In this document: one piece after another, positions 1,141 through 2,204 of the stretch
How positions within the stretch are numbered: position 1 is the stretch's first letter
Layout of the letters: the number at the start of each line of letters is the position of its first letter
DNA from: Escherichia coli
Lineage (GTDB): Bacteria > Pseudomonadota > Gammaproteobacteria > Enterobacterales > Enterobacteriaceae
DNA length: 2,204 nt
Strand: one strand, 5' to 3'
Assembly (NCBI RefSeq): GCF_003334335.1
Contig: NZ_QOWQ01000093.1
Notes under the pieces: model-generated
Told to the model about the DNA's origin: nothing
Seen by the model: the letters and a program-made list of their open reading frames with translations, nothing else
Database searches by the model: none
Made by a program: the position numbers and the translations under genes

Positions 1141-1674
1141 TTATCTGTCGATTCCCCAGCACGCCAGCGCGCTCTCCTGGTCTCGCCGGGATACCTGACC
1201 GTAACAGTTATTTGAGCGAATACGGCAGTCCCTGCCACCGTCCTTAATCCACCAGCGAATCGCTTCGCAGGCACCTTTTCGATCACCAGCATTAATTCGT
1301 CTGTAAAACGTCGACGGGAAACACTTACCGGGACCAATGTTGTACGGACAGAATGACGCGATCCCCGCTTTCTGGGGTTCGGTCAGCGGCACTCTGATGT
1401 TTTTCTCCACCCACGCCAGCGCTTTATCACGCTCAATGGCGTTAACCTGGTCGCATTTTTCCTTCGACAACTTCATGCCGGGGACGACAGGCTTACCATC
1501 CACCCGGGTGGCACCACGGCAGATGGTCCAGATACCTGCACCATCACGGTATGCCGTGGTGTGGTTACCTTCCTTTTCATCCAGAAACTGGTCGAGAATT
1601 TCAGGCGCAGAAGCCCCTGCGGCAATCAGCGCCAGAACGGCAGCCGACAGGCCGTATTTGATTTTTGCGTTCAT
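1141..1674 (-). CDS. SAR endolysin (phage-21 R-type lysozyme, T4-lysozyme-like muramidase), 177 aa
   Basis: Complete ORF. The N-terminus YGLSAAVLALIAAGASA is the Gly/Ala-rich weakly hydrophobic signal-anchor-release segment typical of SAR endolysins. The catalytic motif E-x8-D-x5-T is present at Glu35, Asp44 and Thr50 (EGNHTTAYRDGAGIWT), the same spacing as T4 lysozyme E11/D20/T26 and as I recall for phage 21 R. The whole protein closely resembles, from memory, the lysozymes of E. coli cryptic lambdoid prophages (RrrQ/RrrD type); this is not verified. Confidence 0.95.
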   Translation of the reverse strand: MNAKIKYGLSAAVLALIAAGASAPEILDQFLDEKEGNHTTAYRDGAGIWTICRGATRVDGKPVVPGMKLSKEKCDQVNAIERDKALAWVEKNIRVPLTEPQKAGIASFCPYNIGPGKCFPSTFYRRINAGDRKGACEAIRWWIKDGGRDCRIRSNNCYGQVSRRDQESALACWGIDR

Positions 1675-1731
1675 GGATATTTATCAGGATTTATCGGTTC
1701 CGAATCCCTGGATATGTTAAGCCTTCACCCC

Positions 1732-1750: not shown

Positions 1751-1785
1751 CAGGGTATGTCAATCTGATAAACACAGAGGTGACT

Positions 1786-2046
1786 ATGGATTATCCAAAT
1801 CTACCAAAACAAACTTTTGCTGATTTAATCGCACTCAGGCAAGCAGTCGTAGCTCTAATCAACGTGTTGCCGGATGAGGAAAAGGAATTAGTTAAAGCAA
1901 TTCTTAACAGAACTGCCGCCGATTTTTCATCATTCCCACTGACAGATGACCTTGCGGACCTTCCTGAATTAATTGCAGCGTCCGCCATTAAGCTTACTGA
2001 AGAGATTTACTCTCCTCAAAAGCCTTCACAAAATTCCTGCGAGTAA
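1786..2046 (+). CDS. Hypothetical small acidic protein, 86 aa (MDYPNLPKQTFADLIALRQAVVALINVLPDEEKELVKAILNRTAADFSSFPLTDDLADLPELIAASAIKLTEEIYSPQKPSQNSCE); moron-like gene on the strand opposite the lysis genes
   Basis: An internal ATG of the 161-aa + strand ORF in the track. Shine-Dalgarno GAGG at 1777-1780 lies 5 nt before ATG 1786 (AGAGGTGACT-ATG). Codon first positions are G-rich, consistent with real coding. The ORF is AT-rich: I counted about 109 G+C in 261 nt (about 42%), against roughly 50-63% in the endolysin stretches I counted. A strong intrinsic terminator follows 20 nt after the stop. The 5' extension of the track ORF (1561-1785) is antisense to the endolysin and lacks a ribosome-binding site, so the 1786 start is preferred. 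No family could be assigned from memory. Confidence 0.55.
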   Translation: MDYPNLPKQTFADLIALRQAVVALINVLPDEEKELVKAILNRTAADFSSFPLTDDLADLPELIAASAIKLTEEIYSPQKPSQNSCE

Positions 2047-2204
2047 CTTCAATGCAATAATCGTAAAACGCCGCGAACTGCTCATCGCGGCGTTTTTCTT
2101 CAGGCCGCTGAAGATGCTCTTTCAACCGTGAAGCGCAGCTTAGATGCGCCGCGCGATCAAGAATAGTTTCTTTCATTTCATCTGCTGCAAGCACCTCATT
2201 TTTT
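1994..2204 (-). CDS. Partial CDS, C-terminal part only (frame is open to the window end; true start lies beyond 2204). Hydrophilic, highly charged tail ...AADEMKETILDRAAHLSCASRLKEHLQRPEEKRRDEQFAAFYDYCIEVTRRNFVKAFEESKSLQ; function unknown
   Basis: The track start at 2194 is a GTG; codons 2195-2203 continue without a stop (K-N-E), so the gene probably starts outside the window. Codon first positions are strongly G-biased and codon usage is E. coli-like, which supports real coding. Its last 17 codons overlap the 3' end of the + strand ORF (1994-2046) and it reads through the terminator hairpin, which lowers confidence. It is not obviously a holin: no hydrophobic segment is visible. Confidence 0.45.
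   Translation of the reverse strand, partial: KNEVLAADEMKETILDRAAHLSCASRLKEHLQRPEEKRRDEQFAAFYDYCIEVTRRNFVKAFEESKSLQ
2065..2097 (+). terminator. Rho-independent terminator: 12-bp stem (AAAACGCCGCGA / TCGCGGCGTTTT, 8 GC-rich core pairs) with 8-nt loop ACTGCTCA, followed by TTTTTCTT
   Basis: Seen directly, 20 nt downstream of the stop of the + strand ORF. An A-run precedes the stem, so the minus-strand transcript also gets a short U-run (possibly bidirectional). It lies inside the reading frame of the minus-strand partial ORF 1994..2204. Confidence 0.6.

Follow-up and report, generated by a model that had tools for sequence, protein, structure and literature searches.

The stretch of DNA analysed here, called the window in what follows, is 2,204 nucleotides long. 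It comes from the lysis region of a lambdoid Escherichia coli prophage, where it covers the interval between genes S and R of a late operon that depends on Q. The plaque-forming Escherichia phage PhiR5_1 matches it over all 2204 bases at 99.5% identity, and the operon, including the hairpin described below, is carried by a viable phage. The late strand of PhiR5_1 has the following order: Q and, further along, holin S, a 211-aa 'DUF1327 containing protein', an ORF of 86 aa, lysozyme R, an antirepressor-like gene, Rz and terminase. The 86-aa ORF is antisense in that phage; the remaining genes named in this order share the late strand. According to the same annotation, Q lies upstream, and the lysis and structural genes lie downstream on one strand, which is the arrangement of a Q-dependent late operon. 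In the window, the late strand is the minus strand, and the features that matter for the discussion are these:

1141-1674, minus strand: lysozyme gene R, called lysozyme in RefSeq and in phage records; going downstream from the hairpin on this strand, it is the first late gene to follow.
1677-1695, no strand assigned: conserved block ATATTTATCAGGATTTATC, holding two copies of ATTTATC, 10 nt apart.
1690-1718, plus strand: candidate sigma-70 promoter TTTATC-17 nt-TATGTT, predicted from 7 of 12 consensus matches.
1777-1782, plus strand: Shine-Dalgarno sequence GAGGTG, separated by 3 nt from the start codon of the plus-strand ORF.
1786-2046, plus strand: ORF of 86 aa, an orphan assigned to phrog_2572, with ATG at 1786 and TAA at 2044-2046, antisense to the late operon.
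1994-2046, no strand assigned: overlap of the two ORFs, 53 nt, from the minus-strand stop at 1994 to the plus-strand stop at 2046.
1994-2204, minus strand: C-terminus of a late gene, 69 codons and the stop TAA at 1996-1994; the reading frame continues beyond the right edge of the window.
2065-2096, no strand assigned: hairpin with an 8-nt loop and a 12-bp stem of perfect pairs (arms 2065-2076 and 2085-2096), terminator-like on both strands.
2093-2100, plus strand: T run TTTTTCTT, following the G+C-rich portion of the stem, of the kind that plus-strand termination calls for.

A preliminary description of this DNA had already placed the two stops at 2046 and 1994, with an overlap of 53 nt, and these coordinates hold. 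It had also located the hairpin inside the minus-strand frame, where it was said to encode KRRDEQFAAFY: the positions of the two arms and the translation agree, the minus frame through this region reading EKRRDEQFAAFYDYC, or (E)KRRDEQFAAFY. The G-rich first codon positions that it attributed to both frames are likewise present, with values of 33% in the plus ORF and 36% in the minus ORF, similar to those of the neighbouring lysozyme and antirepressor genes (37%).

The minus-strand ORF is the end of a longer gene, whose full 211-aa ORF is found in PhiR5_1 (L003:5994-6629), starting 3 nt past the holin stop. It is built of a DUF1327 N-domain, a coiled coil and a KRRDE tail module; the Pfam match to DUF1327 (PF07041, E 1.8e-39) extends over residues 1 to 112, and the share of the window, residues 143-211, falls outside it. 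A search of NCBIfam with the 211-aa protein returned no match. The domain is also that of YdfR, from the Qin prophage of E. coli K-12, and ydfR presumably lies, like the present gene, between holin and lysozyme. The tail found in the window (the last 69 codons) is a separate module, lying beyond the Pfam domain.

This tail module also exists in other settings. In many E. coli prophages it is a stand-alone gene of 67 aa directly after the holin, in the order S, 67-aa gene, (plus-strand gene), R. In Salmonella-type prophages it is a stand-alone gene of 73 aa, flanked by an Rz-like DUF2514 gene on one side and by the terminase genes on the other, and a Q-like antiterminator is found upstream: the locus reads PF03589 antiterminator, holins, endolysin, DUF2514, convergent module, then terminase. 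Finally, it is included in long forms of 296 or 329 aa, which about 30 of 80 IMG/VR relatives possess in the order S, long gene, 36 nt, R, with no plus-strand gene. The long form contains the motif ...KEHLQRPEEKRRDEQFAAF(Y/D)DYC and continues differently afterwards. The tail of the window, KRRDEQFAAFYDYCIEVTRRNFVKAFEESKSLQ, is homologous to the late-strand tails KRRDENEAALYGEVKKVIDEVLVRNFQKLKSTQQG and RQRHHENGVAFVAKAVQQTIDGMTMKFLQELKLSQQE.

Two other histories of the late gene were considered. If the 211-aa gene were a 329-aa form truncated after ...YDYC (near 2053), followed by 19 chance codons running into an inserted antisense cassette, the end of the tail would be accidental; tblastn finds only weak similarity between 2053 and 2018. 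This model was dropped because the diverged homologues of the plus gene show the same overlap and a homologous tail, stand-alone genes of 67-73 aa included. A tandem fusion of two homologous C-terminal variants was superseded: the 329-aa form natively has the same junction. In many E. coli genomes, Shiga-toxin prophages among them, RefSeq treats the late gene as a pseudogene, a truncated member of the YdfR family; the PGAP annotation calls it 'missing C-terminus' in several genomes, and elsewhere takes the same tail for the C-terminus of a YdfR family protein. The comparisons suggest an intact modular gene whose 3' end overlaps a small convergent gene, rather than a pseudogene, and the minus ORF looks like a real late gene, in which a 'KRRDE...RNF' C-terminal module is fused to a DUF1327/YdfR N-domain.

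The plus-strand ORF, labelled hypothetical protein by PGAP (WP_001625288), matches phrog_2572 over its full length (E 3.6e-50). Searches of PADLOC, NCBIfam and Pfam assigned its protein to no family; the PhiR5_1 record gives it the label 'DUF1823', which we reject, the Pfam E-value being only 0.04. Diverged homologues came from an exhaustive profile-free search: they have 89-93 aa, with identities of 41-58%, and belong to prophages of E. coli and Salmonella (P0065, with 93 aa and 58% identity over the matched part; P0066, with 89 aa and 42%; P0070; P0072, from Salmonella enterica; and P0073). Matches to two repeat proteins of 975 and 1305 aa (P0067 and P0068) were judged to reflect helical-repeat similarity and not homology, and a scan of species-representative genomes yielded no confirmed locus. 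The plus genes form three lineages, labelled W, B and C, that are 41-51% identical in amino acids and have a common start, a common stop and lengths of 86-93 aa. At the position that matches the Shine-Dalgarno sequence of the window, lineages B and C both have TAAGGA.

All three lineages, diverged as they are, keep a convergent late-strand ORF with a homologous tail, an overlap of 53 nt in W and 59 nt in B and C, and an 8-bp hairpin core. The overlap and the hairpin are kept in two genomic contexts, one from S or DUF1327 to R, the other from the Rz-like DUF2514 gene to the small subunit of terminase. Judged from these comparisons, the unit is a convergent gene pair, whose late-strand member carries, in the window's case, a DUF1327 domain fused to it. 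Inserts that differ between genomes, with borders near 1750 and 2097-2102, make the stretch from the DUF1327 gene to R a hot spot for cassettes.

Whether both ORFs are real, or one of them the shadow of the other, was left undecided in the preliminary description. Its two coding-like ORFs stand, and the shadow alternative is not supported, as the diverged lineages keep both ORFs and their overlap; on the alignments, both look real. One may still suppose that the plus ORF is no gene, that composition alone holds an antisense frame open, and that the 320-nt spacer between S/DUF1327 and R is untranslated late mRNA. This supposition is helped by the weak constraint within lineages (pN/pS of 0.57 in W and 0.78 in B), by the lack of a Pfam, NCBIfam or PADLOC family, and by the wobble-sharing minus frame, which is open in all lineages too and has a slightly lower pN/pS. 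Between lineages, however, identity in the plus frame is 0.58-0.70, 0.75-0.77 and 0.51-0.60 at codon positions 1, 2 and 3, so that position 2 exceeds position 1, which exceeds position 3, while the antisense reading gives the atypical order of position 1 above position 2. The BLOSUM62 score per site is 2.33 in the plus frame, against 1.67 in the wobble-sharing antisense frame and at most 1.0 in the remaining ones; five indels of the plus gene are in frame and one is a frameshift, whereas upstream non-coding indels are not multiples of three. A Shine-Dalgarno sequence is present in all lineages, and length, start and stop persist at 41-51% amino acid identity, when the ends of the antisense ORF do not. 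Homologues in which one frame is routinely interrupted, which the preliminary description would have taken as the mark of a non-coding frame, are not what the 47 IMG/VR loci contain: the minus tail is intact in all 47, and the plus ORF in 38, the rest having ACG for ATG (8 loci) or an IS insertion (1 locus). These losses of the start codon, and the insertion, do speak for the supposition that the plus ORF is no gene. All in all we hold it very unlikely that the plus ORF is not a gene: it looks like a real accessory gene with a conserved candidate promoter. Substitution patterns between homologues, from which a decision between the frames had been hoped, gave part of the answer: they fit coding in the plus frame for the plus gene, and in the minus frame across the hairpin, where pN/pS is 0.11 (2045-2098) and the third codon position holds 5 of the 6 variable sites; by minus codon position, the identity of W and B is 13/19, 15/19 and 8/19. 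In the overlap itself, which has few sites and symmetric frames, clear constraint is seen in neither frame. In lineage W, pN/pS there is 0.70 for the plus frame and 1.16 for the minus frame, with 6 variable sites; in lineage B, it is 1.0 and 0.77. Between lineages, identity in the overlap at plus positions 1, 2 and 3 is 7/16, 11/16 and 8/16, a peak at position 2 that is not significant. These numbers leave room for a second doubt, namely that the last 17-19 codons of the minus ORF are unselected read-through, that the functional protein ends near the plus stop, that the overlap persists merely for want of counter-selection, and that the PGAP pseudogene calls are partly right. The minus-frame value of 1.16 is what such a tail would show, and the best-kept position of the overlap, with 11/16, is the third one of the minus frame; P0042 and P0043 have frameshifted tails, and PGAP notes a missing C-terminus in several genomes. 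Moreover, the chance that a frame of about 19 codons stays open is around 0.4, so the length of the overlap alone is not improbable. But its recurrence in diverged homologues exceeds, as far as the alignments go, what chance would give: the position of the stop shifts by no more than 6 nt among three lineages, a K-S-x-Q ending recurs, the tail is intact in all of the 47 loci, and PGAP itself elsewhere reads it as the end of a YdfR family protein. We think a read-through tail unlikely, while taking it seriously.

Among the inverted repeats of the window, the hairpin is the longest, with a folding energy of -19.6 kcal/mol on the plus strand and -20.8 kcal/mol on the minus strand; its z-score is about -5 (-5.1 on the plus strand), and none of 200 shuffles folds as well. 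The stem has 8 G-C pairs out of 12, and the loop, of 8 nt in the window, has 10-12 nt in lineages B and C. It starts 18 nt past the TAA of the plus ORF, and the 8-bp core (2067-2074 with 2087-2094) starts 21, 21 and 24 nt past the stop in W, B and C. A simple terminator scan of the window does not list it, because the scan extends the stem through A-T pairs and uses up the T run; Rfam covariance models have no match at E <= 1 on either strand. The T run is good in the window (TTTTTCTT) and in the commonest allele (TTTTTTTT), moderate in lineage B (TTTCTGTTC) and poor in lineage C (TTGTCGCTC), while the minus strand continues after the hairpin with UUUUACGAUUAUU. The word terminator, used in the preliminary description, is a reasonable but provisional label for the allele of the window: lineage C has its poor T run, and the same bases that form the hairpin serve as normal codons.

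The two arms of the stem are CGC-CGC and GCG-GCG codons, for Arg-Arg and Ala-Ala, which are common in E. coli, and part of the hairpin could thus follow from the peptide alone. One can go further and take the whole hairpin for a by-product of K-R-R...A-A-F written with CGC and GCG, which are mutual reverse complements, with no function at the RNA or DNA level and with a position after the plus stop that is inherited and not selected. Lineages W and B do share the KRRDE..AA residues and the codons used for them, stem variants within lineages are all synonymous or single changes, and the T run of lineage C is weak. The core, on the other hand, is paired in 79 of 80 cells, over 10 alleles and three lineages, when loop and flanks vary. 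In lineage C the residues differ, R being replaced by H with A by V, and D by H with F by G; despite this, 9 pairs remain in the same register, and in two pairs both partners have been replaced (one G-C by A-U, the other G-C by C-G). This covariation is not significant, since 88 of 500 shuffles reach the same count, and it comes from one diverged lineage. Most of the 296/329-aa long forms, which are without the plus gene, have a hairpin with a transversion mismatch, or have lost an arm through a 15-nt in-frame deletion. As their ORF is unharmed, this decay can be counted in favour of a by-product; it is also suggestive of a link between the hairpin and the plus gene. Stem variants are all transitions in loci that have the plus gene; in the long forms the usual variant, a transversion, disrupts pairing on either strand (p ~0.09, suggestive only). 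We judge it rather unlikely that the hairpin is a mere by-product of the codons. The stem variants compatible with G-U pairing, three against three, are uninformative on which strand is selected.

Upstream of the plus gene, a stricter promoter scan lists no strong sigma-70 site. The weak candidate promoter TTTATC-17-TATGTT adjoins a block, ATATTTATCAGGnTTTATC, that is kept in all three lineages. The hexamers of the candidate promoter and their spacing are also kept in all three, in surrounding upstream DNA that has diverged. In the block ATATTTATCAGGATTTATC, 18 of 19 positions are conserved across W, B and C, the exception being A or C, and the block is kept even in lineage B, which has no adjacent lysozyme gene.

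With both ORFs taken as genes, a familiar type of element comes to mind. Phage morons are autonomous promoter-gene-terminator units between phage genes, and lambda bor is a moron antisense to the late operon, just after Rz; such elements are reportedly the subject of work by Juhala and Hendrix in 2000. The plus gene is likewise small, accessory and antisense within a late operon, and it likewise has its own candidate promoter and a hairpin with a T run past its stop. Phages that otherwise resemble each other may have it or lack it, its site being a hot spot for cassettes: the long-form loci go from S through the 329-aa gene and a gap of 36 nt to R without it, and other cassettes occupy the same slot. 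A further likeness is that the module is found in two different genomic positions. It differs from a moron in several ways. Its terminator-like hairpin is not intergenic but inside the coding sequence of the neighbouring late gene, its two ORFs overlap by 53-59 nt, and the tail of the neighbour travels with the plus gene.

A comparison with bidirectional intrinsic terminators is equally instructive. These lie between convergent genes and consist of an A run, a G+C-rich stem and a T run. The present hairpin has the same symmetry, with AAAA, a G+C-rich stem and TTTT, folds about equally well on both strands, and lies between two convergent transcription units. Unlike them, it is inside an ORF, about 70-100 nt before the stop of that ORF, it must be read through on the late strand if R is to be expressed, and the quality of its T run varies between lineages.

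We lean, with moderate confidence, towards the following explanation: the plus gene would be a moron-like gene on the antisense strand, with a candidate promoter that is conserved and a terminator-like hairpin lying inside the coding sequence of its neighbour; the whole module is embedded in the Q-dependent late operon of lambdoid enterobacterial prophages. Activity of the promoter, termination at the hairpin and any regulatory interplay are inferred, along these lines. In the lysogen, host RNA polymerase would transcribe the plus gene and stop at the hairpin, so that the holin gene and the region of the late promoter would be spared antisense transcription. Once the prophage is induced, polymerase modified by Q would arrive from pR' and ignore the hairpin, met in the opposite orientation; ribosomes would translate through it, and transcription would go on to R, Rz and the structural genes. 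This mechanism fits established lambdoid biology, in which Q-modified polymerase ignores tR' and the terminators downstream. As in other lambdoid late operons under Q-mediated antitermination, Q is upstream, and a single strand carries S, the module, R, Rz and the genes for terminase; Q itself is nothing unusual in the present operon. The preliminary description had proposed that late transcription reads through the hairpin by Q-type antitermination if the minus-strand gene is real. The mechanism is retained as the probable one, and the proviso is not needed: the hairpin separates Q, upstream, from R, Rz and the genes for terminase, which follow downstream on the minus strand, and late transcription has to pass it whatever the status of the minus ORF.

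One can conjecture a closer association, in which the convergent pair is a functional unit. The hairpin would then have a dual use, as coding sequence on the late strand and as terminator or 3' stabiliser on the antisense strand, maintained by compensatory changes, and it would couple an accessory gene expressed in the lysogen to the late operon. Late transcription driven by Q might silence the plus mRNA through antisense pairing over its full length, or the plus transcript might modulate the late mRNA from holin to endolysin and hence the timing of lysis. We regard this conjecture as quite unlikely, and keep to the moron-like gene with an embedded hairpin.

When genes overlap tail to tail by more than 50 nt, the usual verdict is a miscall; the present overlap persists through about 50% protein divergence and in two genomic contexts. 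The module also makes it practicable to study a terminator-like structure lying within a late gene that is presumably translated: E. coli C supports growth of PhiR5_1, and termination by ordinary polymerase and read-through by Q-modified polymerase can be tested on the same DNA. The stakes are modest, for the proteins have no assigned function and the mechanism stays within established lambdoid biology.

Three minor observations may be added. A 65-aa minus-strand ORF at 1791-1988 is antisense to the plus gene, and the third positions are common to both; as a candidate gene it was rejected on codon-position identity, BLOSUM scores and unconserved ends. Against the favoured explanation stands a cassette variant in a Stx2a prophage (strain 2014C-4587, locus L002): there the plus ORF has a terminator of its own, and yet the hairpin is kept. 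Finally, residues 1-72 of K-12 YdfR (103 aa) bind to RNase E's catalytic domain, and the protein co-purifies with RNA (PMC13232886), the sole lead on function, which concerns the N-domain of YdfR, outside the window.

The slot between the late-strand DUF1327 gene and the lysozyme gene R, filled in the window by the 86-aa + strand gene, is occupied at two other loci by these cassettes, each with a + strand ORF that shares sequence with the DUF1327 ORF of the late strand at the latter's 3' end:

L001:7736-7975, + strand ORF of 79 aa, overlap of 68 nt
L002:7940-8437, + strand ORF of 165 aa, overlap of 252 nt

Long tail-to-tail overlaps are thus recurrent at this hot spot; in L002, the tail of the minus-strand ORF looks like a shadow.

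The RefSeq (PGAP) annotation of the late gene is inconsistent (L004:4614-4955, L001:8097-8438, L155:2036-2371, L154:1820-2026): the gene is often called a 'YdfR family' pseudogene 'missing C-terminus', its tail left without annotation, and in one copy split by an insertion sequence the tail is labeled as a C-terminal fragment. Intact forms of 169-211 aa are widespread, so the pseudogene label may be mistaken. The commonest long form, of 296 aa (L080, L085 and similar loci), carries a 15-nt in-frame deletion that takes out the residues KRRDE together with one arm of the hairpin encoded within the late-gene frame.

The + gene varies at its start. In 8 of the 47 IMG/VR loci (L028-L030, L032-L034, L037 and L051), the start codon reads ACG, with the change at the equivalent of window position 1787. 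Indels upstream lengthen the open frame in this lineage as far as a start close to that of the lysozyme gene, giving a product of 127 aa (P0055). At another locus the + gene is split:

L049:1238-2500, insertion of 1263 bp with IS3-family-like ends (TGAGGTAGCCTGAGTTTAACGGACAC...)

Three features of the window lie upstream of the + gene:

1673-1720, + strand, mini-ORF of 15 codons, MDIYQDLSVPNPWIC
1677-1695, conserved block ATATTTATCAGGATTTATC, with two ATTTATC copies at a spacing of 10 nt
1733-1749, small hairpin CCAGTG-GTGGG-CACTGG, within the putative 5' leader of the + gene

The conserved block keeps 18 of its 19 positions when the three lineages of the module are compared, among them the Salmonella type, where no lysozyme gene lies next to it; the block may serve the + gene as a promoter or operator. 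The mini-ORF begins with an ATG that shares bases with the complement of the start codon of the lysozyme gene. In lineage B a mini-ORF of equal length, MYIYQALSALKLWLL, ends at the aligned TAA; in lineage C the stop is not kept. A sequence similar to the small hairpin is present in lineage B.

Two features belong to the rest of the late operon:

1010-1034, inverted repeat GGCACC-ATTAC-GGTGCC, between the lysozyme and antirepressor genes
172-867, KilAC-domain antirepressor-like gene, between R and Rz

On the minus strand the repeat is followed by TTTGTCATTTCTG, which makes it a second terminator-like site in this operon. The position of the KilAC-domain gene is unusual, yet recurrent in Stx-type prophages, and several very small annotated ORFs come after it.
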